26,951 nucleotides of DNA. Origin: Candidatus Fraserbacteria bacterium. Its GTDB lineage: Bacteria; Bipolaricaulota; Bipolaricaulia; RBG-16-55-9. Below, one piece after another: positions 6,254 through 23,002 of the stretch. Location of the stretch: assembly GCA_037442925.1 (NCBI GenBank), contig JBBIPG010000032.1:1-26951 (forward strand), in the 5' to 3' direction. Each line of letters opens with the position of its first letter. Within the stretch, counting starts at the first letter, position 1. The position numbers and the translations under genes were made by a program. The notes below the pieces were generated by a model. The model did no database searches, had not been told where the DNA came from, and worked only from the letters and a program-made list of their open reading frames with translations.

Positions 6254-6286
6254 GAGATCACCTTGGCTCTTGACGCGCATGGTAGC

Positions 6287-7318
6287 TCACCGCTGAACCG
6301 GGTTCCAACAAGCGGCGTAGTGCTCTTCCCCAAAGAGCTGCAGTTGGGGCACTTGCTCCTGACAGATGGCCGTGGCGTGCGGGCAACGCGGGTGAAAGCG
6401 ACAGCCCGAAGGAGGCTGGAGCAAGTTGGGTGGCTCACCCGGAACGATGGTCAGCTCGTGCTTCTCCCCTCGGATGCTGGGAAACGCCGACATGAGCGCT
6501 GCCGTATACGGGTGACGCGGACGCTTGAAGATGACCTCCGTGGGGCCCATCTCTACCAGCTTGCCTGCGTACATGATGCCGACTTTGTCCGATACTTCCG
6601 CGATGACCGCGATGTCATGCGAGATGTAGATGACACTCATGTTGAGCTGATGGCGGATCTCATCTAGTTTATTGAGAATGCGATCCTGCACGATCACGTC
6701 GAGGGCTGTAGTGGGCTCATCCGCGATGATGAGACTGGGGTCGCAAGCCAACGCCATGGCGATGACGGCCCGCTGACGCATGCCCCCGCTATATTCATGT
6801 GGGTACTGGTCCATGCGGTTGGGGTTCAGACCAACCAGTTCGAAGAGTTCGGCAACTCTATTGCGTGCCTCTTGTGTGCCCACGCCGTTATGGGTCTGCA
6901 TCGCTTCCACGATCTGCTCGCTCACACGATAGACGGGATTGAGCGAGTTCATAGCCGCTTGGAAGACCATCGAGATGCCTTTCCAGCGCACCTTGCGCAT
7001 GTGCCGTTCGGGAAGCTTAAGTAAATCCACATGATCTTCCTTGATCACGCCAGCCCTCTCATACCAGCGTGCCTCTTCCTCCGGCAGCTTGAGCAGGTCT
7101 TTGCACCGATAGAAGACGTGGCCTCCGCGAATCTGAGCGTTTTCCGGCAGCAGACGCAGCAGAGTGATCGCCAGCGAGGACTTGCCACAGCCCGACTCAC
7201 CTACGAGTCCTAAAGCTTCGCCCTGTTTCAACGCCAAGGAGACTCTATCGACCGCACTGACGTCTCCCTTCTTCGTGCGGTAATGCATGGTCAAATCGCG
7301 CACTTCCAGTAAGTTCAT
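6287..7318 (-). CDS. oppD: Peptide/nickel ABC transporter ATP-binding subunit (OppD/DppD-type)
   Basis: GESGCGKS, YPHEYSGGMRQR, IIADEPTTALDV, HPYT and the CRFHPRC..C..C tail. Confidence 0.95.
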   Translation of the reverse strand: MNLLEVRDLTMHYRTKKGDVSAVDRVSLALKQGEALGLVGESGCGKSSLAITLLRLLPENAQIRGGHVFYRCKDLLKLPEEEARWYERAGVIKEDHVDLLKLPERHMRKVRWKGISMVFQAAMNSLNPVYRVSEQIVEAMQTHNGVGTQEARNRVAELFELVGLNPNRMDQYPHEYSGGMRQRAVIAMALACDPSLIIADEPTTALDVIVQDRILNKLDEIRHQLNMSVIYISHDIAVIAEVSDKVGIMYAGKLVEMGPTEVIFKRPRHPYTAALMSAFPSIRGEKHELTIVPGEPPNLLQPPSGCRFHPRCPHATAICQEQVPQLQLFGEEHYAACWNPVQR

Positions 7319-7349
7319 GAATCTTCACCCGCAACAGTGAATGGAGCGC

Positions 7350-8312
7350 TCAAATCTTTCTCAACCTGGGATTGACTATCTCATCCATGCCACGACCCAC
7401 AAAGTAGAAGGCGGCACAAAGAGCCGTAATCGAGGTCGCTGCCGGGAAGAAGAGCCACCAGTAGCGGGTGACGGCCTCTCCGGTCAGATAGCCACCGATG
7501 TTGGCCAGCTCCACCATCATACCCCAACTCATCTGGATATTGATCAAGCCGAAGAAGCTGAGAACGGCCTCTGTGAAGATCGCGTTGGTCACATTGAACA
7601 TCATGTATAAGAAGCTCAAGGGCAAGAGATTGGGGATGATGTGGGTGAAGATGATGTGGAAGCTGCTGCCACCGGAGACCTTGGCTGCCTCGATGTACGG
7701 CTTCACTTTGATCGTCAGCGCTTGAGACTTGAGCACGATGGTGATCGACCCGAATCCGTAGATGAGCCCCAGCACGACAGCCAGACTATAGAGGGTGAGA
7801 TCGAACATGGCACTCAGCACAATCAGAAAGGCAATGACCGGGAACAAGACAGCCACATCAGCCACGCGCATGAAAAACGTATCTACGAATCCCCCATAAT
7901 AGGCCGAGGCTGCCGCGATGAGGGTCCCAATGATTACGGTGATGAGCGCCGCCATAACGCCCAAGAAGAACTCGGATCGGGCACTATAGGCAAGCTGCGA
8001 GAAGACATCGCGCCCGTGTTGGTCTGTGCCCAACCAGTGCCGCGCCGATGGGGGAGCCGGATGCTGCCCTCCTTGCTGCACGACGACCGGGTCATAGCCC
8101 GAGACGGGATTGTAGATTTCATGATCCCAGATCGTGGCCATGAGAATCGGGTAAGACAGGGACAGAAGCCCATAGAACACAATAATTGCCAATCCGATCA
8201 GACCGACGCGGGATTCCTTGAAGAGTTCCCAGTTGATAGACAAGCCTCTCAGAAAGAGCCTGAGCTTCGCCCTCCAGGGTGCCTCGTAATGACGTTGCGC
8301 TATCGCTGCCAT
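7350..8312 (-). CDS. oppC: Peptide ABC transporter permease (OppC/DppC-type)
   Basis: PPSARHWLGTDQHGRDVFSQL, EAA loop YIEAAKVSGGS, HIIPNL, and C-terminal EIVNPRLR. Confidence 0.93.
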   Translation of the reverse strand: MAAIAQRHYEAPWRAKLRLFLRGLSINWELFKESRVGLIGLAIIVFYGLLSLSYPILMATIWDHEIYNPVSGYDPVVVQQGGQHPAPPSARHWLGTDQHGRDVFSQLAYSARSEFFLGVMAALITVIIGTLIAAASAYYGGFVDTFFMRVADVAVLFPVIAFLIVLSAMFDLTLYSLAVVLGLIYGFGSITIVLKSQALTIKVKPYIEAAKVSGGSSFHIIFTHIIPNLLPLSFLYMMFNVTNAIFTEAVLSFFGLINIQMSWGMMVELANIGGYLTGEAVTRYWWLFFPAATSITALCAAFYFVGRGMDEIVNPRLRKI

Positions 8313-8351
8313 GGAACTAAGTCTTTCACTCCCTCGGTTGTTCTGGGTTCA

Positions 8352-9518
8352 TTATGTGTACCGAATGCGCGGATCCAGATAGGCGTAGAGGAGGTCCGCG
8401 ATCAAGTGAGCAATGAGGGCAAATATGCCGGTGAATACAAAGGTGCCAATGGCCAGAGGAAGATCCTCCTCCACAACAGCTCGTAGCAATGTCAGCCCCA
8501 TCCCCGGCCAGGAGAAGATCGTCTCCGTGACGATGCCGCCATCTACAGCGAAGGCCAAAGACAAGACGAAGCTGGTCACCACAGGCAGCAAGGCATTGCG
8601 GGCCGCGTGCTTGTCACGCACGACTTTATCCGGCAGGCCTTTGGCCTTGGCCGCCATCACGTAATCTTCCTTGACGACGTCGAGCATGCTATCGCGCATC
8701 AAGAGCATATAACCGCCGAAGCCAATAGCCGTCAAGGCAAACGCCGGCAGGATCATGTGCCACAGGATATCTTGCGCCAAGTAGCCCATAGGATACGTAT
8801 TGAAGAGCAGATACCCCAAAGATCCAGCTGTGAGCGCAACGGCACCCACCTGGACGGAGAGACGAGCCCAGTAGGACTGAAGTAGACGCTGCGCAAACAG
8901 GTAGACACTGAACAGGACGACGAAGCCCCCTCCCCCATAGAGCAAGATGTAGTTGAAGACATCGTTCGGTGAGATGTACTTGATGAAGGGTCTCCACTTG
9001 AGCGGATCGATGAATTTCCCGATGGGAAGCCAGCCAAGTTGGAACGCGAAGATCCAGATCAGAAGCAGGCCGAACCAGGGAGTGTACACGGTCCAGAGCA
9101 CGACTCCGCTGACCGTCGCCGAGTAGTCCACGACTCCACCACGCCTCCAGGCGATCAGCTTCCCCAGCTGGAAGGCCAAGGCATAGTAGATGATCGTAGC
9201 CGTCAAGAAGAGGGCAAGCGTGCGGGGCAGACGCTCCTTGATGATCTCCCAGACGGGCTGAGGGTAATTGGTGAAGGAGAGCCCCAGGTTCCCGGTGACG
9301 ATGTTTTTCAAGTAATTCACGTATTGAATGTGCAGAGGTTGATCCAGACCCAGCCGTCGCTTCAGCGCGTCGCGGGCCTCCTGTGGGATACGGGGATTGC
9401 TGATATACACTTGCGAGATGTCACCCGGCTGCGCAGCCACGATGATGAAGACAATGGTCACATAGATGTAGAGCGTCAGAAGAATCTGAGCCACCCGCTT
9501 GATCACATATTTGCGCAT
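8352..9518 (-). CDS. oppB: Peptide ABC transporter permease (OppB/DppB-type)
   Basis: LGLDQPLHIQY, EDYVMAAKAKGL, KHAARNALLP, ETIFSWPGMG, DLLYAYLDPRIR. Confidence 0.93.
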   Translation of the reverse strand: MRKYVIKRVAQILLTLYIYVTIVFIIVAAQPGDISQVYISNPRIPQEARDALKRRLGLDQPLHIQYVNYLKNIVTGNLGLSFTNYPQPVWEIIKERLPRTLALFLTATIIYYALAFQLGKLIAWRRGGVVDYSATVSGVVLWTVYTPWFGLLLIWIFAFQLGWLPIGKFIDPLKWRPFIKYISPNDVFNYILLYGGGGFVVLFSVYLFAQRLLQSYWARLSVQVGAVALTAGSLGYLLFNTYPMGYLAQDILWHMILPAFALTAIGFGGYMLLMRDSMLDVVKEDYVMAAKAKGLPDKVVRDKHAARNALLPVVTSFVLSLAFAVDGGIVTETIFSWPGMGLTLLRAVVEEDLPLAIGTFVFTGIFALIAHLIADLLYAYLDPRIRYT

Positions 9519-9632
9519 GAAGACCTCTTCTTATGCTCTGGGCATCCTGGCCCACCCTTGCTCCTCTAGCCTAGCAAACGACAACCCCGGCGTCAATGCA
9601 GCAAGTCATGTCCTACGAACTAAAGACGGCAA

Positions 9633-9666
9633 GAGGTCCAGGAAGCACGGTCGCCTCCTGGACCTC
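9633..9666 (-). terminator. Strong intergenic hairpin after the substrate-binding protein gene (mRNA stabiliser or partial terminator)
   Basis: Perfect 11-bp inverted repeat GAGGTCCAGGA (9633-9643) / TCCTGGACCTC (9656-9666); no clear U-tract. Confidence 0.6.
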
Positions 9667-9709
9667 CGTGCCTCAACTCATCAACGTCCTTGACACGGCA
9701 ACTGACTTC

Positions 9710-11629
9710 TTACTTGCCGGCAACGAGATTCAGTTGCCCGAGGCTAAGCGAGTTCGAGAATCCACCCAGCAGCGGCTTGTCCTCAAGCCCCTGCCAGCCG
9801 ATCCTGTCGACTCGGAACGCGTCGTTTACGACTACGTGGTGTGTGGGAACATATGCCACGTAGTCGAAGACCATCTTCTGCAGCTGGAAAGCAAGATCGC
9901 GTGCCTTGTTGACGTCCGACTCGGCCAAGAACTGGAATGACAGGTCATCAAACGTGTCCTGGCAGCCGTTCAGGGCGTTCTCCCTGGCGCTACAGACTCC
10001 GCCCTGCGCGGCGTTGCCTTGTCGAGCGGCGTTGCGGCTACCGAAGAATGCCTCCAGGTAGTCTGGATAGAAGCTCAAGCTCCAGCCCAGCTGCCACATG
10101 TCGAAGTCCTGCAGGTCGAACACCAGCGTGACGATGTTGTTGAAGCCTGCGGGTACGTCCCTGACCAGCACGCCCAGCTTCTGCAGCCGGTCCACGATGT
10201 GCAGGCCGAAGATGTTGCGGTTGTTGTCGTAGGCCGCGTTGGGGTGCAAGAGTTCCAGCTGCGGGATCGGGTTGCCCTCCGGATCGGCCGTCAGAATGCC
10301 CTGGGCGTTGAATTGGAAGCCCGCGCCCGTGAGCAGCTGTTTCGCCCTGGCCAGACGATCTGCCTCACTCATTCCCTTGCAAGACTCCTGCCTTTCCGCT
10401 TCCGTCAGAGGCCGGTACCAGAACCCGTTACCCGGCGGAACTACGTTCTCCGCTACGACGACCAGGTTCTGCAAGAGTGAGCTAGCCACGAACTCCTTGT
10501 CAACGACGCAACGGACGGCCTGGCGGAACTCCAGATAGTTGAAGGGGACCTTGCGCATGTTGAAGCTGAGATAAAAGACCCCGTTATCTGCGTTGCTAAG
10601 GACCCGGACGTTGTTAGCCGCTTGCAGCTGTTGCAGGGTGGCCAGTCCATAGCCCAGCGGGTTGAAGTGGTAGTCCGCGTCGCCGCTGATGACGGCCAGA
10701 GCTGCCGCGGCCTGGCTGCCAAAGAGGTTGAAGAGCACCCCATCGACGAAGGGGCCGGTAGTGTATTCAATGAGTTGATTGCTCAGATCGCCTGCCGAGC
10801 GCTCCACGCCAGTGGGCAGTCGCTCCCAGTGGCCATCGCTACCTGTTTCCCCGTACTCCCGGTTGAGGGTGCCCTTGAAGAAGAAGTTGGGGTTGGCCGA
10901 GATCTCCGCGAAGGCTCCCGGCGTCCAGCTCTCAAACTGGAATCCCCAGGCACTTGGCTCATCCGTGCCATCGAAGGCCGACAGAGTCTGAACCGGGTTC
11001 GCGGAAGCGAACGCCTGGTTGAACTTGGGCTCCCAGTAGGCCTTCTGGAGGATGGGAGAAAGCAGGGCACCGAACTCCCAGCGGGCCAGTCCCGGCTTCT
11101 GCTTGAAGAAGAATTTGACAGTGTAGTTGCCCTGCGCTTCCACATGGTCGACGAACTCTGCATCGAACCAGGACGGGAAACCGCCACCCAGGTCGATGGA
11201 GAGCGCATTGCCCGTCGATGGGTTGGTTTTGACAAAGTTGTTGAAGGTGAAGGCCACGTCGTTGGCCGTGATCTCTGTGCCATCGCTCCACTTCACACCC
11301 TGGAGCAGGTTAACCGTGGCGACCGAGAAGCCATCCTCTTCTGTGAAGGGGCCAGCGAAGTCGGCTGCCAAGGAGGGGAATGGCGAGAAGCCTGGAACCG
11401 TCAGACCGTAGAGGGCTATGTGCTGCCAACCCCACACGTAGGCGTTCCAGATGGTGTTGTTGGCCCCGTTGTTCGTGGCGATCCAGCTGTTGCCACCCTT
11501 GAGGTCCTCATGGACGGCAGTCACGAAGATCTTCTCCGCCTGCGCACTCGCAACGCTGGTATTGAGGTTTAGGCCCATCAGGAAGGTCAGCCCCAATGCC
11601 AGTAAAACCGCAAAGCGTATCGCTTTCAT
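9710..11629 (-). CDS. ABC transporter substrate-binding protein, family 5 (OppA/DppA/NikA-like), cleavable signal peptide
   Basis: Signal peptide ending VASAQA; family-5 motifs GVKWSDGTEITANDVAFTF and YLSFNMRKVPFNYLEFRQAV; directly upstream of oppBCDF; AGGAGG RBS. Confidence 0.9.
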   Translation of the reverse strand: MKAIRFAVLLALGLTFLMGLNLNTSVASAQAEKIFVTAVHEDLKGGNSWIATNNGANNTIWNAYVWGWQHIALYGLTVPGFSPFPSLAADFAGPFTEEDGFSVATVNLLQGVKWSDGTEITANDVAFTFNNFVKTNPSTGNALSIDLGGGFPSWFDAEFVDHVEAQGNYTVKFFFKQKPGLARWEFGALLSPILQKAYWEPKFNQAFASANPVQTLSAFDGTDEPSAWGFQFESWTPGAFAEISANPNFFFKGTLNREYGETGSDGHWERLPTGVERSAGDLSNQLIEYTTGPFVDGVLFNLFGSQAAAALAVISGDADYHFNPLGYGLATLQQLQAANNVRVLSNADNGVFYLSFNMRKVPFNYLEFRQAVRCVVDKEFVASSLLQNLVVVAENVVPPGNGFWYRPLTEAERQESCKGMSEADRLARAKQLLTGAGFQFNAQGILTADPEGNPIPQLELLHPNAAYDNNRNIFGLHIVDRLQKLGVLVRDVPAGFNNIVTLVFDLQDFDMWQLGWSLSFYPDYLEAFFGSRNAARQGNAAQGGVCSARENALNGCQDTFDDLSFQFLAESDVNKARDLAFQLQKMVFDYVAYVPTHHVVVNDAFRVDRIGWQGLEDKPLLGGFSNSLSLGQLNLVAGK

Positions 11630-11679
11630 TCGTCTTTACCTCCTCTTTCTTTGTCTCTTGTCTCCCTGATTTTACATCA

Positions 11680-12939
11680 TCAATAAAGCGCACTGACATC
11701 GAACGCCCGGATTTGCATGCGGCCCACCGTGCCCCGCAGACCGCCCTCCCAGAAGACGTACAAGTAGCGGTTGTTGTTCGAGACTGCCACCACACCCACA
11801 GGGGCGGGCTCCGTCTTAGCCACAGCCTGCAGCGTCTCCACCACGCTCAAACTCGCTGTGTCAATGATGCTTACGCTATTGTCCAGGGAGTTCGAGACAT
11901 AGAGGAAGCGGCCGTCCGGGGATAGGGCCAAGTGACGAGGAGCAGTGCCAACCTTAATGGTCGCCACGACACTCCTCACACAGCCGCGTCCACTACCTTC
12001 GAGCACAGTGACCGTGTTCGAACCCTGGTTCGAGACGTACCAGCGACTCGCATCGCTGCTGCCTATGACCATGTAGGGGTTGATCCCTAAGCCGGAGATC
12101 GTGCTGACTCGGTAGTTCTGAAGATCAAAGCAGGCCAGATCTCGGCTTGCCTGCGCGACCACAGCGTATGAGTTCCCGACGACGAACAAACTACCCGGAC
12201 CCACGCCGCCGGTGACGACCTTCTTCAGCACCGCACCGGTCGCCGCGTTTAACACATAGACCGCGTTATCCGCGCTGGCGCTGACGAGGAGCTTGGTCTC
12301 TGCCGTATTGAGCTTGGCATCTACCGGCGAACCCATGATCCTCAGCGCCGGGTCGATGTCACTGGAGCCACCGTCGGTAATGACTGTGGCCTGATAGTTC
12401 GCGGGCCATACGATGGTGCCATCATTGTAGTTGACACTGCTACTCTCATTGGTGGCCGTCGCTTCCGCTCCTCTTGCTAGATCCACCTTGATGGTACTGT
12501 CGAGGAAGAGGTTCGGAACGTACGCGTAATCGCAGCCGATGCTGAGATCCATGCCCGGGTATCCGCGGGGTCCTGTGCCGGCAGGCAGACCTGTGCCCTG
12601 ATCTCCCAGCGAGGGGCTGAAGACGCCGGGACCCGGCCCGAAGTCGTCGTTGTCCCCGAACATCAGGAAGGCATCTCCATCGAGAGCAGGCTTGCCTGTA
12701 TCGATGCCTGTCAGTTTCTGTAGCATGAGATCATCTAGGACGCTTGGACCGATGCTGGCAACCCAGGCCTCGGTGCCGTTGGAGCAGATCGCTATGTCCT
12801 CAATCTTGCCTTGGCCTCTACTCCAGTTGAGGGTAGAAACGAGGCTGATACCGGACTGTGTGATAGCAACTTGTGCCATGCCGACGTACAATCCTGCTGC
12901 GAGAAGAGCCAGCAGTAACCATCGACTGAGCCTATTCAT
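11680..12939 (-). CDS. Secreted YVTN/YncE-type beta-propeller protein
   Basis: Signal peptide; repeats such as YVSNQGSNTVTVL and IKVGTAPRHLALSPDGRFLYVSNSLDNSVSIIDT; AAGGAGG RBS. Confidence 0.85.
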   Translation of the reverse strand: MNRLSRWLLLALLAAGLYVGMAQVAITQSGISLVSTLNWSRGQGKIEDIAICSNGTEAWVASIGPSVLDDLMLQKLTGIDTGKPALDGDAFLMFGDNDDFGPGPGVFSPSLGDQGTGLPAGTGPRGYPGMDLSIGCDYAYVPNLFLDSTIKVDLARGAEATATNESSSVNYNDGTIVWPANYQATVITDGGSSDIDPALRIMGSPVDAKLNTAETKLLVSASADNAVYVLNAATGAVLKKVVTGGVGPGSLFVVGNSYAVVAQASRDLACFDLQNYRVSTISGLGINPYMVIGSSDASRWYVSNQGSNTVTVLEGSGRGCVRSVVATIKVGTAPRHLALSPDGRFLYVSNSLDNSVSIIDTASLSVVETLQAVAKTEPAPVGVVAVSNNNRYLYVFWEGGLRGTVGRMQIRAFDVSALY

Positions 12940-13073
12940 TTTATCCCTCCTTAGGCTTTATGCCGTCTGAAAGCATGCTGATTGAACAGTCTTTTAGGGG
13001 GTTGCGAACTTCACGGTCTTCTTGTGATTTGGTATGGGTCACCTCCCGTCGCCGCGTTTTGGGAGACGCTAGT

Positions 13074-13102
13074 ATTTTAATAACACTCCGGCTCGCTGTC
13101 AA
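13074..13102 (-). promoter_or_regulatory. Sigma70-type promoter of the YVTN-opp operon
   Basis: Minus strand TTGACA (13102-13097), 17 nt, TAAAAT (13079-13074). Confidence 0.8.
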
Positions 13103-13133
13103 GCGTAGCATGGCGGCAAGAGACCTCCTCAGT

Positions 13134-13162
13134 TTGAAGGAGCCCTGCTTTTGAATTATGAT
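13134..13162 (+). promoter_or_regulatory. Sigma70-type promoter of the second opp cassette
   Basis: TTGAAG (13134-13139), 17 nt, TATGAT (13157-13162); GAGGTGA RBS before GTG 13206. Confidence 0.7.
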
Positions 13163-13205
13163 GGGAATTAACTCTTGTGTAGGGAAAGCGCAGAGGTGAG
13201 TTGTC

Positions 13206-15293
13206 GTGGATCGAGCCTGGATCTTGCTGTTGGCCGTTCTAGCCTTGGCTGTAGCGGGTCTTCTCTTGTTGAGACCTGGGGCTCCTCCCGTCGAGAAGCC
13301 CACCCCCATTGAAAAGCCAGCCCCCACGCCGGAAAAGCCACAACCGGAACCACCGAAAGAACCCGAAAAACCCAAAGAGGAACCCCAGCAACCGCCCCCT
13401 CCTATGGAAGAGCCGGTATCGTCGAAACCACGACCGGAACCTTCCAACCGGACGACCCTCATCCTCGACACGATCTCCCTGCCGGAAACACTCGATCCAG
13501 CCTGGTCTTTCTTCACAGCGGACTCGGCCATCATCGAGCAGATGTACGAGCACCTGGTGGACTACAAGGGCGGCTCCCTCGGTGAGTTCATACCGGAGCT
13601 GGCTACAGAAGTCCCCACGGTGGAGAATGGCGGCATCAGCGCGGATGGCTTGACCTACACGTTCCATCTTCGTCGTGGAGTGACATTCTGGGACGGCAGT
13701 CCGTTCACCTGCGCCGACGCGGAGTACAGCTTCGAACGTGTGCTGGCCATGGATCGTGACAGCGGTCCGACCCTGATTTTGATCGATCCATTGCTGGGCA
13801 TTACCACGACCCGTGACGCGGAGGGCAATCTGATCTCGAGCGTGAGAATCGGCGGTCAAGAGAAGTCCTTGGCTCAAGCCATCGATGAGGCCATCGAGTG
13901 CAGTCCAGATGGGACGAAGATCACCTTCAAGCTCGCGCACACCTTCCCGCCCTTCCTGCAGCTGATGTCCCACTCCAGCGTCGGCTCCATCTACTCCAAG
14001 GCCTTCGCCATCGCCAATGGAGCGGCAGACAACGCCGATCCTGAGGCGTTCTTGCAGGCCACCAACGGTCCCACGGACGTGGCTTCGACAGCGCTGTTTG
14101 ACAAGGCCATGGGCACCGGACCCTTCCGGCTCCAGGTCATCGACCGAGTTGCGGAGCAGGTCATCCTCACCCGCTTTAACGGCTATTGGCAGGGACCTGC
14201 CGCGCTCGAGAATGTCATCTGGAATAACGTGCCGGAATTCAACACCCGCCTGCTGCGCCTGGCTGCCGGGGACGCCGACATCAGTTACATCTCCACTCGT
14301 GCTCAGACCCAGCAACTCAAAGATCAAAGACCTGCCGGTGTCCGCCTGATCGAGTTCCTCCCCGGCTTTGTCACCGAATCCTTCAACCTCAACAAAGATA
14401 TTCAAGTCCAAGCCGGCAGTGAGTTCGTGGGCAGCGGTAAGTGCGATGGCAACGGCATCCCGCCCGACTTCTTCGCAGACATCCACGTGCGCAAGGCCTT
14501 TGCCCACTCCTTCAGCCAGGAACAGTTCATCTCGGACTTCCTGCTGGGCGCCGGTGTTGTGGCCGCCACACCCATACCACCCAACGTGGAGTTCTTTGAT
14601 CCCGAGGTCCAGGCGATCCCCTTCGACCTCAACGCCGCGGAGCGGGAGTTCAAACAGGCCCGCTGCACTGGCAGTGACCAGTCCGTCTGGGAGACGGGTT
14701 TTAAGTTGATTGCCACCTACAACGCTGGCAACGCTCGGCGTCAGGCCGCCCTGCAACAACTGGAGTTCTACATCGAGAGCCTAAACGCGAAGCGCCCAGG
14801 TCTACCGCCCTTCGATATCATCATCCGCGATGTGCCCGGCTCGATCTTCTTCAATCCTAACCAGCAGCGGATCACGCCGATCTTCGTGGGCGGCTGGAGC
14901 CCGGACTTCATCGACATCGACAATTGGATCCGTCAGTGGATGGATGCCCAGGCGGGCACCTTCGGAGCCGTGACCGGCCTGAGTGCCCTGGGCGAGAAGA
15001 CGCAGGAGTGGATCAAGCTGCTCAACGAGGGCATCACCACCGTGGACAAGAAGCGCCGCCAAGAGATCTACTCCCAGCTGCAGCGCGACTATGTGGAGTA
15101 CGCCGTCGCGATCACCCTGCCCACGCGCACTCTCGATGTCGTGGAGCGCAGCTGGGTGGACGGCAACTACTACAACCCCGGTGAAGGCGATCCTCAGGAG
15201 CCACCGAACGTCTACGCGCTCAGCAAGAGGGCAGATGGAAAGCCAAAGATGGAGGAGCTAGCACCCTATAGCCCCACGGTCACAGAGTTCTAA
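13206..15293 (+). CDS. ABC transporter substrate-binding protein, family 5 (DppA-like), with N-terminal TM anchor and Pro/Glu/Lys-rich stalk
   Basis: PETLDPA, MYEHLV, TYTFHLRRGVTFWDGSPFTCADAEYSFER, MGTGPFRL, DIHVRKAFAHSF, GWSPDF. Confidence 0.93.
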   Translation: MDRAWILLLAVLALAVAGLLLLRPGAPPVEKPTPIEKPAPTPEKPQPEPPKEPEKPKEEPQQPPPPMEEPVSSKPRPEPSNRTTLILDTISLPETLDPAWSFFTADSAIIEQMYEHLVDYKGGSLGEFIPELATEVPTVENGGISADGLTYTFHLRRGVTFWDGSPFTCADAEYSFERVLAMDRDSGPTLILIDPLLGITTTRDAEGNLISSVRIGGQEKSLAQAIDEAIECSPDGTKITFKLAHTFPPFLQLMSHSSVGSIYSKAFAIANGAADNADPEAFLQATNGPTDVASTALFDKAMGTGPFRLQVIDRVAEQVILTRFNGYWQGPAALENVIWNNVPEFNTRLLRLAAGDADISYISTRAQTQQLKDQRPAGVRLIEFLPGFVTESFNLNKDIQVQAGSEFVGSGKCDGNGIPPDFFADIHVRKAFAHSFSQEQFISDFLLGAGVVAATPIPPNVEFFDPEVQAIPFDLNAAEREFKQARCTGSDQSVWETGFKLIATYNAGNARRQAALQQLEFYIESLNAKRPGLPPFDIIIRDVPGSIFFNPNQQRITPIFVGGWSPDFIDIDNWIRQWMDAQAGTFGAVTGLSALGEKTQEWIKLLNEGITTVDKKRRQEIYSQLQRDYVEYAVAITLPTRTLDVVERSWVDGNYYNPGEGDPQEPPNVYALSKRADGKPKMEELAPYSPTVTEF

Positions 15294-15303
15294 TCCAGAG
15301 GGT

Positions 15304-16338
15304 ATGCTTGCGTTCATCGTTCGCCGACTGCTGCTTCTGCCCGTTGTGGTTTTCATTTCCACACTCTTGATCTTCACCCTCATGCAACTCTTACCACCCA
15401 GCGTCCGAGTTGCCCTCTACGCTAAAGAGAATCCCCGAGCGTGGAATGACATCAACGACCTGATCCGCATTCACGGCCTCGATCAGCCCATCTATGTGCA
15501 GTATTGGAATTGGATTAAGGGAATCTCCCAGGGAAACCTCGGCTGGTCCTATTCGGCTCAGATGCCCGTTGCCAAAGCCTTGCAGAGCTACCTGCCAGCC
15601 ACGATCGAGCTGACGCTCATGTCCATCATCCCCCTCGTCATAGGGGGCATCTGGCTGGGGACCAAATCCGCTGTCTATCATAACCGAGTGCCCGATCACA
15701 TCACACGCCTCATGTCGATCACCGGCTGGTCACTGCCTACGTTTGTCGCGGGTCTGATCTTGCTCATGGTCTTCTATGGCTACTTGCGCTGGTTGCAGCC
15801 GGGCCGACTCAGCACAGAGGTGAAGCTCATTGTAAGCAACCCGCAGCTGTTTACCCCCTATTCGGGCATGTACACCGTGGATGCGCTTCTCAACGGCCCC
15901 AATTGGGTTGTCTTTTGGGATGCGATCAAGCACCTGATCCTGCCCGCTATTACCCTGGCCTATGTGAGCTGGGCGCTCATCGTACGGATCATGAGAAGCA
16001 GCATGCTCAACGTGTTGCGCGAAGACTACATCATGGTGGCGCGAGCTAAGGGCCTAGAAGAGAGAGCCGTCATCAACAAACACGCACGGCGCAATGCGCT
16101 GATCCCGGTGATCACGGTCTCGGCCATCGTGGTGGGGCTCTTGCTCGGGGGCGTGGTCATCACGGAGACCATCTTCAATTACTTTGGGGTGGGCTGGTGG
16201 TTCGTTCGAGCTGCCACGCAACTGGACTTCCCCGCGGTGCTCGGCTTTACGATCTTTAACAGCATTCTCTGGGTACTCGTGAATCTCGGCGTAGACGTGC
16301 TCTACTCCTACATCGACCCGCGTGTGAGGTTGACGTGA
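15304..16338 (+). CDS. oppB: Peptide ABC transporter permease (OppB/DppB-type); its stop codon is supplied by the IS right end
   Basis: HGLDQPIYVQY, EDYIMVARAKGL, KHARRNALIP, DVLYSYIDPRVRLT. Confidence 0.95.
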   Translation: MLAFIVRRLLLLPVVVFISTLLIFTLMQLLPPSVRVALYAKENPRAWNDINDLIRIHGLDQPIYVQYWNWIKGISQGNLGWSYSAQMPVAKALQSYLPATIELTLMSIIPLVIGGIWLGTKSAVYHNRVPDHITRLMSITGWSLPTFVAGLILLMVFYGYLRWLQPGRLSTEVKLIVSNPQLFTPYSGMYTVDALLNGPNWVVFWDAIKHLILPAITLAYVSWALIVRIMRSSMLNVLREDYIMVARAKGLEERAVINKHARRNALIPVITVSAIVVGLLLGGVVITETIFNYFGVGWWFVRAATQLDFPAVLGFTIFNSILWVLVNLGVDVLYSYIDPRVRLT

Positions 16339-16430
16339 CACTCTGCGGCGACTAAAGTCGCGCAGCTTCTCGCCGAAGCGAGCAACTTGCCGGGTGTCCG
16401 CCGGAACTACTGCGCCAAGGGCGCAGATAC
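16315..16430 (-). ncRNA. Predicted TnpB omegaRNA (3' scaffold plus flank-derived guide GTCAACCTCACACGCGGGTC); 5' boundary not determined
   Basis: Structured 3' region overlapping the end of tnpB: CTCGC-TTCG-GCGAG tetraloop hairpin (16382-16369), right-end hairpin, TCAC, then the host flank 16334-16315, as established for IS605 reRNAs. Confidence 0.75.
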
Positions 16431-17527
16431 GTGATGGAGCGTGGAAGATGGCTAACCGGAAGCAAGCGACCGTGAACGCCGATCTGCAAGATGTTCGTGG
16501 CTCCCACAACGTCACGCGGGGCGACTACGCCACACTCACAGCGATATATCCTTCCCTGCTTGCTTCTCCGCCCGCATACGGGACACGTCTGCGAGCTGTA
16601 AGGCTCATCAACTTCAATGGCTCCAGTCGTCTTGTAGTTGAGAAGCCAGATGATCTTGGCATTACACGCTTGACTTACTTGTTGAGCTTGTTGTCTACGA
16701 ATGCCTTGCGATGCATCATTGAACGGCCTTCCAGCGTAGCACTTTGCGTTGGGGAAGGCATTGGCAATCTGGCGCGTGGCCTTGTGCACGATGTCGTTGA
16801 GGCGATGGCGGTTCTTCGCCAGTATCTTGGCTTTGCGACGTTGCAAGCACCTCCACCGACGCGAACCCTTCGCCATGCGGGACTGCTTGGCGCTAATACT
16901 AGCCAAGAGCTTGTTTCTAAGACGAATAACAGACTTAGCCGCACGCCCACTGACAAGGACAGCCTTCTCACCATCGCTGGCCGCGATCAGCGTATTGACA
17001 CCGAGGTCAATTCCGATGGTTCGCTCCACAGCTTGAACTGTATCGGCAACTTCGCTGACGATCAGGACGCGCCCAAAGCACAGACGGGCTTCGATCAGAC
17101 GGCCAGGAAGCTCAACCGGAATCCGTATGCGCAGCTTACCACTCTTGCCACTGGGCAGTGTCAAGATGCCGTCTTTGAGCCGAGCCGCTTGATTGGTGTA
17201 GATGACATCGCGGTACTTGGGCTTGCGCCAAGGGTAGCGCATATGGGCTTGGCCCTGTTTGCGCAGCCGCTTGATGGCTTGAACGGCCTCGCAAAACTCA
17301 GCGATAATCTGTTGAGCAGACTGCGAGTGCAACCCCGGATACTTGCGTTTGGCCCACTTTTGCCAGCGTTCCTTGGTGGGCCATCTCCAGTCGGCAGATC
17401 GGATTCGGTGATGTCGCTCAACCAAGTCCCCCCAGAGCCTAGCAGCCTCTTGGCGAGAGGCTGTGAACGTCTGCCATTGGGTTTGGTTACGCGGCATCCA
17501 GGCAATCTCTATCTTACGATAACTCAC
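16352..17527 (-). CDS. tnpB: RNA-guided endonuclease TnpB with rearranged RuvC-II, about 391 aa from GTG 17527
   Basis: RuvC-I IGIDLG, KGSRRW, HKATRQI, VDEPYSSQTCPVCG...YRCECG zinc finger, RuvC-III RDVVGATNI. The track start at 17575 lies upstream of the element's own promoter, so GTG 17527 is preferred. Confidence 0.95.
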   Translation of the reverse strand: MSYRKIEIAWMPRNQTQWQTFTASRQEAARLWGDLVERHHRIRSADWRWPTKERWQKWAKRKYPGLHSQSAQQIIAEFCEAVQAIKRLRKQGQAHMRYPWRKPKYRDVIYTNQAARLKDGILTLPSGKSGKLRIRIPVELPGRLIEARLCFGRVLIVSEVADTVQAVERTIGIDLGVNTLIAASDGEKAVLVSGRAAKSVIRLRNKLLASISAKQSRMAKGSRRWRCLQRRKAKILAKNRHRLNDIVHKATRQIANAFPNAKCYAGRPFNDASQGIRRQQAQQVSQACNAKIIWLLNYKTTGAIEVDEPYSSQTCPVCGRRSKQGRIYRCECGVVAPRDVVGATNILQIGVHGRLLPVSHLPRSITYLRPWRSSSGGHPASCSLRREAARL

Positions 17528-17533
17528 ACTAGC

Positions 17534-17562
17534 AGTGTAGCTTTTGACACGCTGAAAGTCAA
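17534..17562 (-). promoter_or_regulatory. tnpB promoter (leaderless transcript)
   Basis: TTGACT (17562-17557), 17 nt, TACACT (17539-17534), 6 nt, in-frame GTG at 17527. Confidence 0.75.
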
Positions 17563-17628
17563 AGGGGCGCTTCATCTACAGGGGTTAAAACCCCGTAGCT
17601 TTCGCTCCGGAAGGATTCTGTAATCGTT

Positions 17629-18726
17629 ATGCGCAAACCTCACCCGGAGCCCCCAGGAAGTCCGGCAAGAGCGGAGATCCAAGTCACGGAAGTTCAGAGT
17701 CCCATAGTGCCTCCAGAGGGAGGTCCTCTACCTTCCGGCGAATGGCAGAAATTCAAAGGCGCTCAGTCGACCTGGTGGCCAGGGCTTGTGAAACAGACGA
17801 AGCGCTTCCTGCACAACCCGCTGTCCTGCACGGGGATCATCTTGATCCTCTTCTTCGCCCTGGTTGCCGTTTTCGCCCCTTGGCTTGCTCCGCCTGACCG
17901 CCCTCGCGAACCATACCGCATGCCACGCGACGGATTCGCCTTGCAACCTCGCCCTCCGCAAGCGGACGCTTGGCAGACCTTCCCACCCGACTGGCACAAG
18001 CACCCCTTCGGAACCATGGAGGGCCAGTACGACATCTATTATGGCATCGTCTGGGGGGCTCGCAACGCCTTTCGCATCGGCGTTGCAGTAGTCGGAATTG
18101 CCGTTGTCATCGGCATCATCGTGGGTAGCCTCTCCGGATACTTTGGCGGCTGGATCGACCAGTTGCTCATGCGCCTTGTAGATATCTTGCTCTCGTTTCC
18201 CACGATCATTTTGGCTATCGTCTTGGTCACGGTCTTGACGAACCCTGGCGTGAAACTCTTTGGGATGTCGTTTGATCGGCTTACGGCTCTCATCATCGCC
18301 TTCACGTTCACACAGTGGCTGTCCTATGCCCGTCTTGTCCGCGGGGACATCTTGTCCGTGAAGGAGAAGGAGTTCACCCAAGCGGCCCAGGCCATCGGTG
18401 CAGGCCACCTGCGCATTATCATCAAGCACATTCTCCCCAACTCGATTTATCCGGTGCTGATTGCCGCCTCCTTGGATATTGGCTCCGTCGTACTATCCGT
18501 GGCTGCGCTGAGCTTCTTGGGATTGGGGCCAGGAACGGACTTTGCCGACTGGGGCCAGATCATCAGCTACTCGCGCGAGTGGATCTTGGGAGCACATGGC
18601 AATCCCTTCCATTACTGGTATGTGATCATCATTCCCAGTGCGGCCATCACGCTCTTCGTGCTGGCCTGGAATTTGCTGGGGGATGCCTTCCGAGATATTC
18701 TCGATCCCAAGCTGAAGGGTCGGTAA
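17629..18726 (+). CDS. oppC: Peptide ABC transporter permease (OppC/DppC-type)
   Basis: HPFGTMEGQYDIYYGIVWGAR, GYFGGWIDQLLMRLVD, EFTQAAQAIGA, HILPN, NLLGDAFRDILDPK. Confidence 0.93.
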   Translation: MRKPHPEPPGSPARAEIQVTEVQSPIVPPEGGPLPSGEWQKFKGAQSTWWPGLVKQTKRFLHNPLSCTGIILILFFALVAVFAPWLAPPDRPREPYRMPRDGFALQPRPPQADAWQTFPPDWHKHPFGTMEGQYDIYYGIVWGARNAFRIGVAVVGIAVVIGIIVGSLSGYFGGWIDQLLMRLVDILLSFPTIILAIVLVTVLTNPGVKLFGMSFDRLTALIIAFTFTQWLSYARLVRGDILSVKEKEFTQAAQAIGAGHLRIIIKHILPNSIYPVLIAASLDIGSVVLSVAALSFLGLGPGTDFADWGQIISYSREWILGAHGNPFHYWYVIIIPSAAITLFVLAWNLLGDAFRDILDPKLKGR

Positions 18727-18741
18727 CTGAGCTGTAGTTTG

Positions 18742-18783
18742 ATGTCGGTTCACGTGGCCGACATTCGAGAGTCCTGCTATCAT
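18742..18783 (+). promoter_or_regulatory. Inverted repeat plus extended -10 upstream of the third substrate-binding gene
   Basis: ATGTCGG...CCGACAT inverted repeat (18742-18764); TGcTATCAT (18775-18783); GGGAGGTG RBS before ATG 18810. Confidence 0.5.
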
Positions 18784-18809
18784 TTCATGAGCAAAGGGAG
18801 GTGTTACCT

Positions 18810-20879
18810 ATGAATGGTAACAGTAATATTCTGCTGATCATCCTAGCGATCGCTGCCGTGGTGGTCCTGGGATTTCTCGCCTTGAAGCCTTCCGCTCCAC
18901 CCGCAACGCCTGAGCAACCGACCCCCGTGGAAAAACCCGCCAAACCGGAAAAACCGACAGAACCACAAAAACCACAAGAAGAGCCACCAGCACCGAGTGA
19001 ACAGCCGACCACGCCCCAGAAACCCGAACAGCCACAACAGCCGACCGTGCAACCCCTGACCGGCTCCATCAAGAACCCCGATACGCTGATCGTTGCGGAT
19101 CTAAGCGATATCGATACTCTCGATCCGCAGTTCGCCTATGATACAGCCAGCGGCGAGATCATCTTCCACGTGTACGACAACTTGATCATGTACGACGGCC
19201 CAAGCACTGAGAAATTCTTGCCCATGCTCGCCACACAGGTCCCCAGCCTCGAGAATGGACTCATCACAGAAAACCCTGATGGCTCGGTCGTCATTCGCTT
19301 TCCCATCCGTCAGGGCATCAAATTCCATAACGGCAATGCTCTCACACCGGAGGATGTCGCCTACAGCTTCCAGCGGCTGATGCTCATGGACCGCAGCGGT
19401 GGCCCAAGCTGGCTGGTGCTCAATCCTCTTCTCAATGTCAACACCATCGCCGACATGGCCAAGGTGATCGAGGCCGAGCGCACAGGCCAGAATGCCGACG
19501 AGATCGACTTTCAAGCCGTGAGCCCTGAGACACTGGTCGCAACCTGCGAGCGCGTCAAACAGGCAGTGCGCGTCAACGGCAATGACGTGGAGTTCTCCCT
19601 GCCGAAGCCCTTCCCGCCCTTTCTGTCCATCGTGGCCCAAAGTGCAAGCTGGGCCGCGATCATCGACAAAGAATGGGCGACCGAACAAGGCGCATGGGAT
19701 GGAAGCTGCGATACCTGGAAAGCACACTACGACCCCCAGAAGGAGAATGACCCCCTCTACGAGAAGATGAACGGCACGGGTCCCTTCATGCTGGAGCGCT
19801 GGGATCACGCCACAGGAGATATCTCGCTCGTGCGCAACGACAACTATTGGCGCGGCCCGGCCAAGCTGGCCCGCATCGTCATCAAGAAGGTCAACGAGTT
19901 CAGTACCCGCAAACTGATGCTTCAAAACGGCGACGCGGATATCGCCGCCATCAATAGAAAATTCGTCGACCAAGTCGACGGCACACCGGGTGTGCGGCTC
20001 ATCAAGGGTCAACTGCGCATGACCTTGGGCTTCGTCCTGTTCAACCAGAAGATCACCAAGGAGGGCAACCCCTATATTGGCAGCGGCCAGCTTGACGGTA
20101 ACGGCATCCCTCCTGACTTCTTCAGCGACATCGACGTGCGCAAGGGTTTTAACTATGCGTTCGACTGGGAGACCTTCATCCGCGAGGCCATCAAGAATGA
20201 AGCCGAACAAGCCAAAGGACCCATCCCGCGAGGAGTTCAGTTCTTCAACCCGGAAAATCCCGTCTATCACCTGGATCTAAAGAAGGCCGAAGAGCACTTC
20301 AAGCGAGCCTGGGATGGTCAGCTCTGGCAGAAGGGATTTAAATTTACAGCTCCCTATCTGGTAGACGACCAAGCCTCCAAGACCCTCTTTGAAATACTGA
20401 AGCGCAACCTCCAGAAGCTCAATCCCAAGTTCGACATCGAAACCGTCAATCTCGAATGGTCCGCTCTGCTTGGCCAAAGCGTGAAGGGAACTCTGCCCGT
20501 CTACTCCGCCGGATGGCTGGAGGACTATCACGATGCGCACAACTGGGTCTTCCCGCTCATGCATAGCCAAGGGACCTACGCAACCGCCACGAACATGGGG
20601 ACCCAGTACGATGCCCTCATTGACCGAGGCATCAAGGAGCTGGACCCGACAAAACGCCAAGAGATCTACTACGAACTGCAGCGTCTGGCCTATGAAGATG
20701 CTATCGCCATCTTCACCGATCAACCGTTGGGACGCCACTACCAGCAACGCTGGGTGGACGGCTACTACTTCAACCCCATCTGGCCGGGGCGCAATTTCTA
20801 CCCCCTGTCCAAACGACTCGATGCCAAGCCCTATATGGAGTACGTCACCCAACTCGGCTTGGTCGTCGAAGAATGGTGA
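18810..20879 (+). CDS. ABC transporter substrate-binding protein, family 5 (DppA-like), TM anchor plus Pro/Glu/Lys/Gln stalk; paralog of 13206-15293
   Basis: IDTLDPQFAYDTAS, IRQGIKFHNGNALTPEDVAYSFQR, MNGTGPFML, GSGQLDGNGIPPDFFSDIDVRKGF (shared with the paralog). ATG 18810 follows GGAGGTG. Confidence 0.93.
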   Translation: MNGNSNILLIILAIAAVVVLGFLALKPSAPPATPEQPTPVEKPAKPEKPTEPQKPQEEPPAPSEQPTTPQKPEQPQQPTVQPLTGSIKNPDTLIVADLSDIDTLDPQFAYDTASGEIIFHVYDNLIMYDGPSTEKFLPMLATQVPSLENGLITENPDGSVVIRFPIRQGIKFHNGNALTPEDVAYSFQRLMLMDRSGGPSWLVLNPLLNVNTIADMAKVIEAERTGQNADEIDFQAVSPETLVATCERVKQAVRVNGNDVEFSLPKPFPPFLSIVAQSASWAAIIDKEWATEQGAWDGSCDTWKAHYDPQKENDPLYEKMNGTGPFMLERWDHATGDISLVRNDNYWRGPAKLARIVIKKVNEFSTRKLMLQNGDADIAAINRKFVDQVDGTPGVRLIKGQLRMTLGFVLFNQKITKEGNPYIGSGQLDGNGIPPDFFSDIDVRKGFNYAFDWETFIREAIKNEAEQAKGPIPRGVQFFNPENPVYHLDLKKAEEHFKRAWDGQLWQKGFKFTAPYLVDDQASKTLFEILKRNLQKLNPKFDIETVNLEWSALLGQSVKGTLPVYSAGWLEDYHDAHNWVFPLMHSQGTYATATNMGTQYDALIDRGIKELDPTKRQEIYYELQRLAYEDAIAIFTDQPLGRHYQQRWVDGYYFNPIWPGRNFYPLSKRLDAKPYMEYVTQLGLVVEEW

Positions 20880-20885
20880 TGTGGT

Positions 20886-20913
20886 GTAGGGGTACGACAT
20901 GCCGTACCCCTAC
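20886..20913. repeat. GTAG-type REP-like palindrome
   Basis: GTAGGGGTACG-ACATGC-CGTACCCCTAC, a perfect 11-bp stem bounded by GTAG/CTAC, intergenic. Confidence 0.75.
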
Positions 20914-20921
20914 GGATCGCC

Positions 20922-21986
20922 ATGCTCGCCTACATTGCGCGCCGCCTGATGTTCCTGCCCATCATCCTCTTTGGGGTCACGGTGCTGCTCTTCGCGATGC
21001 TCCAGCTTCTCGATCCCTATGAGAGGCTTTCGCTGTATGTGAGAGACCCATCCCAACTGCGCGGCGGTAAAGAGCAGCTCGATCGGCTGATCGAAAAATA
21101 CGGACTCGCCGACCCTCTTTATCTCCAATACGGCCGTTGGGTGAGTAAATTCGTTCAAGGCGATTTCGGATGGTCGGAGACGGCCAAGACCACAGTACTC
21201 AATGGCTTTCTCGGCCGCTTCCCTGCCACCGTGGAGTTGACGCTCTTCGCCATTGGCCCGATTCTCTTCTTTGCCATCTGGTTGGGAGTGATCTCAGCTG
21301 TTCATCACAATCGCTGGATTGACCAGCTCACTCGGGTCATCACCATCTTGGGATACTCGCTGCCGAGCTTCGTGCTCGGGCTGGTCCTGCTGATGGCTTT
21401 CTATGGCTTGCTCTCTCGGCATCTGCCCCCGCTGTTCAGTGGCTGGTTCTCCCCAGGACGCCTGAGCGAATGGGCCCAGCAGATCGTCAGCAGCGAGGGC
21501 TTTCACGCTTACACAAGACTGGTCACGGTGGATGCCCTTCTCAATGGCCAATGGCGCGTCTTCTGGGATGCAGTGGGACATCTCATCTTGCCGGTGATGA
21601 CGCTTTCCTACGTCAACTGGGCGGGGTTTCTGCGCATCATGCGCTCCTCGATGTTAGAGACCCTACGACAAGACTACGTGACGACGGCGCGCGCCAAGGG
21701 AGTCGAAGAACGTCGGGTGATCAAGAAACATGCCCGTCGCAACGCGCTGATCCCCATTGTCACGCTGTCGGGTTTCTTGGTTGTGGGTCTGCTCAGCGGT
21801 GTGGTCATCACGGAGACGATCTTCGGTTATCCGGGGTTGGGTCAATGGGCAGCGCAAGCGGCACTCCAACTGGATGTGCCCTCCGTCTTGGGATTGCTCA
21901 CGTTCGTCACGATTCTCTTCATCGTCGTCAATCTGATCGTCGATCTGCTCTACGCGGTGGTGGACCCGCGGGTCAGGCTGACATGA
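20922..21986 (+). CDS. oppB: Peptide ABC transporter permease (OppB/DppB-type)
   Basis: QDYVTTARAKGV, KHARRNALIP, ETIFGYPGLG, DLLYAVVDPRVRLT. Confidence 0.95.
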   Translation: MLAYIARRLMFLPIILFGVTVLLFAMLQLLDPYERLSLYVRDPSQLRGGKEQLDRLIEKYGLADPLYLQYGRWVSKFVQGDFGWSETAKTTVLNGFLGRFPATVELTLFAIGPILFFAIWLGVISAVHHNRWIDQLTRVITILGYSLPSFVLGLVLLMAFYGLLSRHLPPLFSGWFSPGRLSEWAQQIVSSEGFHAYTRLVTVDALLNGQWRVFWDAVGHLILPVMTLSYVNWAGFLRIMRSSMLETLRQDYVTTARAKGVEERRVIKKHARRNALIPIVTLSGFLVVGLLSGVVITETIFGYPGLGQWAAQAALQLDVPSVLGLLTFVTILFIVVNLIVDLLYAVVDPRVRLT

Positions 21987-23002
21987 ACGCAGCCCGAACG
22001 CCCGCTGCCTTGTGGGCGGCGCTTCAATGGACAACCCAACGCCTACTAGATGCCGTAATGGCCTTCATGCGGGCATTGTGGGACACGCTGAAGCAGCTTC
22101 TTAGAAACCCGCTCTCCACCATCGGGCTCTTGCTCTTGGTCTTCTATGCTCTCATTGCACTGCTGGCTCCCGTACTGGCGCCGCCGGAACGGCCCGCGGC
22201 TCCGTACCAGATCCCTCAGCGGGAGATCGTCCGCCCCTTTCAAGCCCCTCAAGGCAAAGACGTCTTCGAGACGACACCGACGCCTCCCAGTGCCCATCAC
22301 GTCTTGGGAACCACCCAAGACCACTACGATATTTATTACGCTCTCATCTGGGGAGCCCGCAATGCCTTTAAGCTGGGCATCATCATTGTGCTGAGCACGC
22401 TGCTGATCGGGATCGTCGTGGGCGCTATCTCGGCTTACTTTGGCGGCTGGGTGGATGAGATCTTAATGAGAATCGTCGAGATCTTCTTAGTATTCCCGTT
22501 CTTGCTGGCTACGCTTGTGCTGACCACGATTCTGGGCCGAGGGCTCGACAAGATCGTGATTGCGTTCATCGTCTTCGGTTGGCCCGGATATGCCCGCTTT
22601 GTGCGCGGGGAAGTGTTGCACGTGAAAGAGAACACCTATGTCGAGGCCGCGCGGGCGGCGGGCGCGGGCAATCTGCGCGTCATCTTTCGGCATGTGCTTC
22701 CCAACGCGATTTACCCCGTGCTCGTGCTGGCATCACTGGATATCGGCAGCATTGTGCTGTCGGCCTCGGCGCTCTCGTTCTTGGGGTTGATCCCGGAAGG
22801 CTTCGCTGACTGGGGACAGCTGATCGGCTTTTCCCGCAACTGGATCTTAGGGACAGTTCAAAACCCCCTCGAATACTGGTACACGATCGTCTATCCGGGG
22901 CTGGCCATCTCTTTGTTTGTCTTGGGTTGGAACTTGCTCGGCGATGCCGTCCGAGACATCTTCGATCCTAGACTGCGAGGAGCCCGCAGCCGATCCTCCT
23001 AA
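21983..23002 (+). CDS. oppC: Peptide ABC transporter permease (OppC/DppC-type), 339 aa
   Basis: ATG 21983 overlaps the oppB TGA (ATGA); HHVLGTTQDHYDIYYALIWGAR, YVEAARAAGA, HVLPN, NLLGDAVRDIFDPR. The track ORF (start 21470) is over-extended. Confidence 0.93.
   Translation: MNAARTPAALWAALQWTTQRLLDAVMAFMRALWDTLKQLLRNPLSTIGLLLLVFYALIALLAPVLAPPERPAAPYQIPQREIVRPFQAPQGKDVFETTPTPPSAHHVLGTTQDHYDIYYALIWGARNAFKLGIIIVLSTLLIGIVVGAISAYFGGWVDEILMRIVEIFLVFPFLLATLVLTTILGRGLDKIVIAFIVFGWPGYARFVRGEVLHVKENTYVEAARAAGAGNLRVIFRHVLPNAIYPVLVLASLDIGSIVLSASALSFLGLIPEGFADWGQLIGFSRNWILGTVQNPLEYWYTIVYPGLAISLFVLGWNLLGDAVRDIFDPRLRGARSRSS

Follow-up and report, generated by a model that had tools for sequence, protein, structure and literature searches.

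An IS200/IS605 element that replaces the stop codon of oppB in a Fraserbacteria genome, and the probable over-representation of such replacements in Chloroflexota

TnpB editors derive from insertion sequences of the IS200/IS605 family, which belong to the most common mobile elements. In the available portions of its descriptions (PMC5934647, PMC3201880), IS608 (ISHp608) of Helicobacter pylori has the target TTAC at its left flank, AAAG at the foot of a hairpin and a right cleavage motif within the element, and does not duplicate its target; the guide AAAG is paired with TTAC and the guide GAAT with TCAA (PMC5934647). Among ISGst1-5 of Geobacillus stearothermophilus, as described in the available portions of Meers et al. 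(PMC10055086), the pairs of target-adjacent motif (TAM) and transposon-encoded motif (TEM) covary with DNA guides, with TTCAC as TEM, and tnpB-only and gene-less members are mobilized in trans, leaving a scarless donor joint that is cut by TnpB. The window analyzed here, a stretch of 26,951 nucleotides from Candidatus Fraserbacteria bacterium (contig JBBIPG010000032.1), contains a single copy of a tnpB-only IS200/IS605 (IS1341-type) element of 1,285 bp on the minus strand (16335..17619), delimited by homologous ends and by an empty ortholog and inserted at the stop codon of an oppB-like gene. It is like IS608 in its flank, left guide, single target and internal right motif, but has GAAG/TCAC where IS608 has GAAT/TCAA and carries no tnpA; with TCAC instead of TCAA, the last host base G is kept, not changed. 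It is like ISGst1-5 in its gene content and motif pairing.

The oppB-like gene (15304..16338, plus strand; PF00528 and PF19300) encodes an ATP-binding cassette (ABC) permease of 344 amino acids, of which the element contributes the third base of the last codon (16335) and the stop TGA (16336-16338). The window reads TTG ACG TGA at 16330-16338 and GTAA TCGTT ATG at 17620-17631. On the minus strand, the target TTAC (17620..17623) immediately precedes the element and is kept at its left flank, and the right cleavage motif TCAC (16335..16338) forms its last four nucleotides, as at homolog loci; on the plus strand, the former is the original G-TAA of oppB, displaced by 1,285 bp, and the latter is G-TGA. 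When 16335-17619 (1,285 bp) is deleted in silico, the sequence becomes TTG ACG TAA, five bases and the ATG of oppC at 17629, as an earlier note on this DNA had seen, and the C-terminus of OppB is ...DPRVRLT-stop in both translations. Because the TCAC tip gives G-TGA in the same frame, the insertion left the OppB sequence unchanged; the earlier note had argued correctly that an antisense landing on G-TAA gives back the final codon together with a stop. The empty allele that it proposed to look for in a relative exists in a genome of the same genus (G001), where the orthologous oppB (90% amino acid identity) lacks the element and has the predicted junction GTGAGGTTGACGTAAGAACCATG; it reads TTG ACG TAA (RVRLT-TAA), and 5 nt again separate it from the start of oppC. 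Thus, the junction and the TAA ancestry of the oppB stop are confirmed. The locus with the closest TnpB homolog (L032, 68% amino acid identity) has matching ends, TTAC-AGAA...AAAG-hairpin and GAAG-hairpin-AGTGTCAC, between unrelated flanks, and the boundaries of the element are confirmed.

One surviving insertion at a stop codon is unremarkable alone, because 143 of the 1,058 TTAC sites outside other genes in the same genome (13.5%), and 156 of all 5,707 TTAC sites (2.7%), are G-TAA stops; these counts are based on an in-house gene caller that predicted 1,916 genes (89% coding) and recovered the long open reading frames (ORFs) of the window. TnpB homologs (E<=1e-30) were present in only 2 of 184 genomes of the same phylum, this genome counted, which were too few for an enrichment test, so that other genomes had to be used. 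The named close homologs come from Chloroflexota and, together with the scarcity in the phylum, make it likely that the element arrived horizontally. A search of Chloroflexota for TTAC left ends gave 44 rows from 45 genomes, 83 rows from 112 genomes and about 50 mostly chance rows from 151 genomes, from which 120 regions were picked before their right flanks were known, excluding short-contig rows, chance-like rows and one unpublished genome. The left end was visible in 119 regions, and a right end was paired with it in 73 and not in 46. Six earlier loci were added, the present locus among them; then the present locus, four loci with short flanks and two pairs longer than 2.2 kb (L543, L547) were dropped, leaving 72 TTAC elements, which came from 41 genomes, one metagenome contig and one viral contig (43 sources in all). 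Removal of the two long pairs changed the count of non-genic replacements from 19/67 to 18/65; L543 was rejected as a TTAC element because, by comparison with relatives, its right end is that of a TTAT element of 356 bp located at an A-TAA stop. The multi-copy elements of G657, G417 and G648 proved to target TGAC rather than TTAC, and 70 TGAC/TCAC elements from three genomes were kept as controls that cannot replace a stop, since TGAC reads G-TCA in antisense. Background TTAC sites were taken from the element flanks, which were called 75% coding compared with 89% for the Fraserbacteria genome. No count includes the unpublished genomes G528, G635 or G617, although the 127 sequences used to train the profile may contain one right end of G635. 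The right-end search found no right ends for the multi-copy TTAC element of G627, and a permissive right-end pattern matched 120 loci in viral contigs, mostly by chance and without a hairpin or tnpB, which were discarded.

Of the 72 elements, 18 replaced a stop codon, 47 were intergenic and 7 lay in genes, and the replacements came from 17 of the 43 sources. Replacements thus made up 25% of elements (18/72), whereas G-TAA stops accounted for 1.3% of the flanking TTAC sites overall; outside genes, the comparison was 18/65 (28%) versus 54/1,385 background sites (3.9%; odds ratio 9.4, p = 3e-10). The enrichment at antisense G-TAA stops that the earlier note had offered as a check was therefore present in Chloroflexota by both measures, but it was absent from viral contigs (1/23 versus 12/372). 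The excess was stable at five thresholds of the gene caller (22-29% versus 1.9-5.2%) and when each genome contributed a single element (a mean of 32% with a range of 25-38%, calculated while the two long pairs were still included), and was still significant for the full set against the 13.5% baseline of the compact Fraserbacteria genome (p = 0.002). Independently of any gene caller, at least 190 open codons ended at the TAA in 14 of the 72 elements and in none for either of the other two antisense frames, compared with 58 of 4,471 background GTAA sites and 0 of the 70 TGAC controls; the controls contained no stop replacements (0/70). Eleven of the 18 host ORFs had Pfam matches over the cut-off, several of which ended at the C-terminus, one had a weak match and six had none. 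A second, non-overlapping set of 92 ends collected by right end first, with mostly unknown targets, contained 10 long frames ending at the TGA of the tip and only one long frame in the other two frames.

Several individual replacements can be compared with relatives that lack the element. The predicted empty G-TAA allele of L551 was present in both relative loci, and that of L557 in one more distant relative (G614). The earlier note had tied the effect to the TTAC/TCAC pair, which is too narrow: L543 is a TTAT/TCAC replacement with a silent change of a Ser codon and empty A-TAA alleles in three loci, L232 is a TTAA/TCAC replacement, and L615 is a TTAC/TCAA replacement that changes the last residue from Trp to Cys. 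At the end of a gene of the altronate dehydratase family, G614 (L655) has TAA without an element, G648 (L557:4243-4262) has the full element, G657 (L653) has a 19-nt right-end stub that still supplies the stop TGA, and G636 (L654) has TGA without an element. These four genomes form a possible life cycle of a stop replacement, but the element-free TGA of G636 could equally be a point change. Among non-genic elements, 10 of 18 short remnants were stop replacements compared with 8 of 47 full-length elements (p = 0.004), and among six remnants of 46-48 bp with a single hairpin, in which the left start is fused to the right tip (L524, L525, L528, L558, L566, L629), three were on stops. The integrity of tnpB was no different between replacements and other full-length elements, the longest ORF being below 300 amino acids in two of the eight replacements. 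TGAC elements were found just past sense TGA stops, where they supply nothing, in 4 of 49 cases versus 42 of 1,715 background sites (p = 0.04).

Antisense replacement of host stop codons by IS605-family elements is probably over-represented in Chloroflexota, most plausibly because the end motifs happen to read as antisense stops and selection keeps the elements that land there. The results that weigh against this explanation come from several directions. In viral contigs, 30 two-ended TTAC elements comprised 1 replacement, 22 intergenic insertions and 7 insertions in genes; the non-genic share (1/23) did not exceed the background (12/372, 3.2%, p = 0.55) and differed from that of Chloroflexota (p = 0.02). 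This null result is read as reflecting a presumably young age of the viral copies; a right-end-first viral set, with mostly unknown targets, had 6 replacements among 56. Sites 2-100 nt past an antisense stop were used in 9 of 152 cases versus 18 of 53 for the exact stop (p = 7e-5), a difference per site of about 5-6 times. Survival of harmless insertions explains it less well, since insertion at the majority of intergenic sites would then have to be costly. Four replacements (L573, L581, L585, L629) and that of oppB are 0-8 nt from the next gene, where polarity should carry a cost. Against the 13.5% baseline, neither the full-length elements alone (8/47, p = 0.30) nor the hosts with Pfam support alone (11/65, p = 0.26) were significantly enriched. 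The genes were called by the in-house caller, and the background came from flanking DNA, not from entire genomes. Related genomes are not independent, so that the p values overstate significance.

Three other explanations compete with selective retention. The excess could arise mostly from the way in which background and elements were selected, inflated by intergenic TTAC sites that the gene caller over-counts or that are not neutral and by the requirement for an intact right end, which favors some copies, with oppB as a lucky survivor; the lower coding density of the flanks, the 46 of 119 left ends discarded for want of a right end, the subsets that lose significance against 13.5% and the null viral set all fit such an artefact, but it appears quite unlikely given the caller-free frames (14 versus 0 and 0 of 72) and the persistence of the excess at all thresholds, with one element per genome and in the second set. 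Active targeting, in which the transpososome would favor TTAC at gene ends, for example through single-stranded DNA or sequence context where translation or transcription ends, and the TCAC end would be an adaptation for silent landing, would account for the preference for exact stops over sites a few bases downstream. It would also fit the two replacements among ten near-identical TnpA-bearing copies in G648 and the concentration of replacements among non-genic elements with TCAC (17/51) rather than TCAA or TCAG (1/14, p = 0.09). Such targeting is nonetheless improbable: viral contigs, in which guide and target are identical, are not enriched; many elements that target TGAC likewise end in TCAC, although for them restoration of a stop is impossible and replacements number 0 of 70; the left guide rather than the right sets the target, according to the available portion of PMC3201880; and the flanking bases show no marked preference except for a pyrimidine at -5. 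Lastly, the boundaries could be wrong, or TGA could be ancestral at oppB and the match coincidental. No empty-allele joint was found in contigs from seven sequencing runs of the strain, of which three contributed nothing and contigs lose rare variants, and the paralogous oppB (20922-21986), which ends in RVRLT as the earlier note had pointed out, has TGA as its stop. The TAA and predicted junction of G001, and the agreement of both ends with homologous elements and with the guide rule, largely refute this possibility and leave it a very slim chance. Selection rather than aiming would be behind the excess because remnants are richer in replacements, the viral set is null, TGAC elements have a milder excess after TGA stops, and the stub of G657 still supplies the stop where G648 has the full element.

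A mechanism based on selective retention can be proposed. Y1 TnpA acting in trans, as established for IS608, would insert a strand 3' of TTAC under guidance of AAAG and without duplication. TTAN and CTAN are N-TAA and N-TAG in antisense and TCAN is N-TGA; thus, with a TTAN or CTAN target and a TCAN right end, replacement of a host stop is automatic. The junction exactly at a stop would be the cleanest of the safe sites, because neither the ORF nor the intergenic tract is interrupted. Once inserted, the tip of the element may be needed as the stop of the host gene; deletions of the tip would then be disfavored and old or collapsed copies might accumulate. TnpB could cut the excised allele again and favor restoration, by analogy with Meers et al. 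A stronger version, in which right ends become parts on which the host gene depends, so that the tip cannot be deleted, decay stops at a stub and TAA can turn into TGA, and in which the TCAN end is kept or the site chosen for this reason, is a tentative and rather unlikely extension.

The features of the element that can be tested are those of an ordinary IS200/IS605 member. Reading on the minus strand, the left end consists of TTAC, 17 nt, the guide AAAG (17599-17602) and a subterminal hairpin (17576-17598; guide and hairpin 17576..17602, fold z -1.85), and the right end consists of the guide GAAG (16366-16369), a subterminal hairpin (16343-16365; guide and hairpin 16343..16369, fold z -2.0, hairpin -8.4 kcal/mol) and AGTGTCAC. 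Hairpins near both ends without terminal inverted repeats are found at homolog loci also; TTAC is present once where G001 joins both flanks, showing no target duplication; the guide tetranucleotides at the hairpin feet predict the cleavage motifs, with AAAG/TTAC as in IS608; and tnpB adjoins the right end, its ORF stopping 13 nt short of TCAC. The assignment of GAAG as the guide for TCAC would extend the IS608 rule, and GAAG/TCAC covaries with GAAT/TCAA and GAAC/TCAG across the collected elements. When viral contigs were searched for AAAG followed by a hairpin, with TTAC left out of the pattern, TTAC was upstream in 42 of 46 loci. No further copy was found in the genome by blastn, tblastn or end patterns. 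Y1 TnpA (PF01797) was not found in the genome, which is 94% complete, but G001, the sister genome, has one, and in G648 it is encoded within related TTAC/TCAC elements. A group I intron, the trait of IStrons, was not detected in the window, where only 16S rRNA reaches the Rfam gathering score. The flank past the right end (16315..16334, minus strand), antisense to the last codons of oppB, is the predicted TnpB guide segment, which would target the excised allele if TnpB acts as in the available portions of PMC10055086; allowing 3 mismatches over 16 nt, the genome has no further match that is flanked by TTAC, and cutting of the paralogous oppB was rejected because its flank is TCAT rather than TTAC. 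In a genome of the same class, a right end that differs by one base (L204/L043, G035:C5:7851-7887) belongs to an element that targets TGAC and encodes a distant TnpB (34%): ends and cargo are exchanged.

The intact tnpB ORF (16352..17575, minus strand; PF01385 and PF07282, with NF040570 above the cut-off) encodes 407 amino acids from an ATG, but the true start is probably GTG 17527 and not ATG 17575, because homologs begin with MSYR and a -10-like site ends at 17534. The promoter-like sequence TTGACT-17-TACACT (17527-17562, minus strand) stops 7 nt short of this GTG, which suggests a leaderless transcript with a start 16 codons inside the longest ORF. TnpB has D190, G282, E324 and D355 and a zinc finger of four cysteines, and is of the rearranged-RuvC type: in TnpB2, according to the available portion of PMC10530073, the RuvC-II Glu is replaced by Gly or Pro and an alternative Glu is located about 45 residues away, and G282 and E324 are invariant among 30 aligned homologs. 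Scans of a genome and a metagenome collection with the single protein gave one locus from each, and a search of plasmids gave a single distant match (34%). Other close TnpB homologs (L044, L045, L049, L050) are in elements with CTAC targets and AGTG or AGGG guides, which could replace TAG stops, as CTAC is G-TAG in antisense.

The intact oppC-like permease gene (17629..18726, plus strand; PF00528 and PF12911; 81% identity to the G001 ortholog) was separated from oppB by 5 nt before the insertion and is now 1.3 kb away. The earlier note had described gene ends as safe harbours; this holds for the protein sequence, which is unchanged, and only for it, because the element separates oppB from oppC and splits their coupling, so that safety for the operon is unproven, and the pattern looks like a by-product shaped by selection rather than a general strategy. 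A single weak terminator-like site lies on the plus strand of the element, a number expected by chance. The left end (17603-17619) places AAGGA 13 nt from the oppC start, the same distance as GAGGT in the empty allele, where GAGGT is within the last codons of oppB; both are complementary to the 16S tail of the genome. A sigma-70-like site with 9 of 12 consensus matches (16330-16358, plus strand) is composed of the last codons of oppB (TTGACG) and the loop of the right-end hairpin; as a consensus match only, it would direct transcription through the element in the direction of oppC, opposite to tnpB. An oppA-like gene is upstream of the oppB/oppC pair, and three adjacent peptide ABC transporter sets, one on the minus strand and two in tandem on the plus strand, occupy 5264-23002, with a 16S rRNA gene nearby (57-1606) and with genes beside them that presumably encode a Crp-like regulator and a UvrB-like protein.

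Among characterized TnpB proteins, TvTnpB (TnpB2; PMC10530073, available portion) is alike in having Gly for the RuvC-II Glu (G282), the invariant Glu 42 residues on (E324, corresponding to E323 of TvTnpB) and the residues D190 and D355, but its TAM is NTGAC rather than TTAC, and nuclease activity is only predicted for the Fraserbacteria protein. The single-hairpin remnants of 46-48 bp in the collected set, formed by deletion between the end hairpins, resemble the terminal-only palindrome-associated transposable elements (PATEs) of Haloquadratum walsbyi (PMC3119063); no discussion of the positions of PATEs on stop codons was found in the available portion. The term 'stop codon' is absent from the main text of PMC3201880 (available portion) and has no occurrences in PMC5934647 (available portion) or in the main text of PMC10055086. 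No description of stop-codon replacement by IS200/IS605 ends was found in the literature searched, which is weak evidence that none exists, as subscription journals were mostly outside it. Miniature inverted-repeat transposable elements that target TA have been reported at stop codons in bacteria, and integrating phages rebuild the ends of tRNA genes. The replacement of stops follows from the known insertion rule, and is thus a neat consequence of it and not a new machine. If it is as frequent as it appears, such insertions would be easily overlooked or annotated as intergenic, their tips may persist as functional stops, by which remnants could become long-lived and TAA could be turned over to TGA, and engineered tools of the IS608 type would find natural sites for silent landing at G-TAA gene ends. 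IStrons, as described in the available portion of PMC4227781, are also related to IS605, also leave the host protein intact and also have an insertion frame biased by selection after insertion, but they do so by group I splicing of the transcript in sense orientation, whereas the repair at oppB is at the DNA level, antisense and confined to the stop. If a quarter of surviving chromosomal insertions use host stops, these elements would have, unlike IStrons with their splicing, a way to occupy gene ends at the level of DNA while leaving the proteins unchanged.

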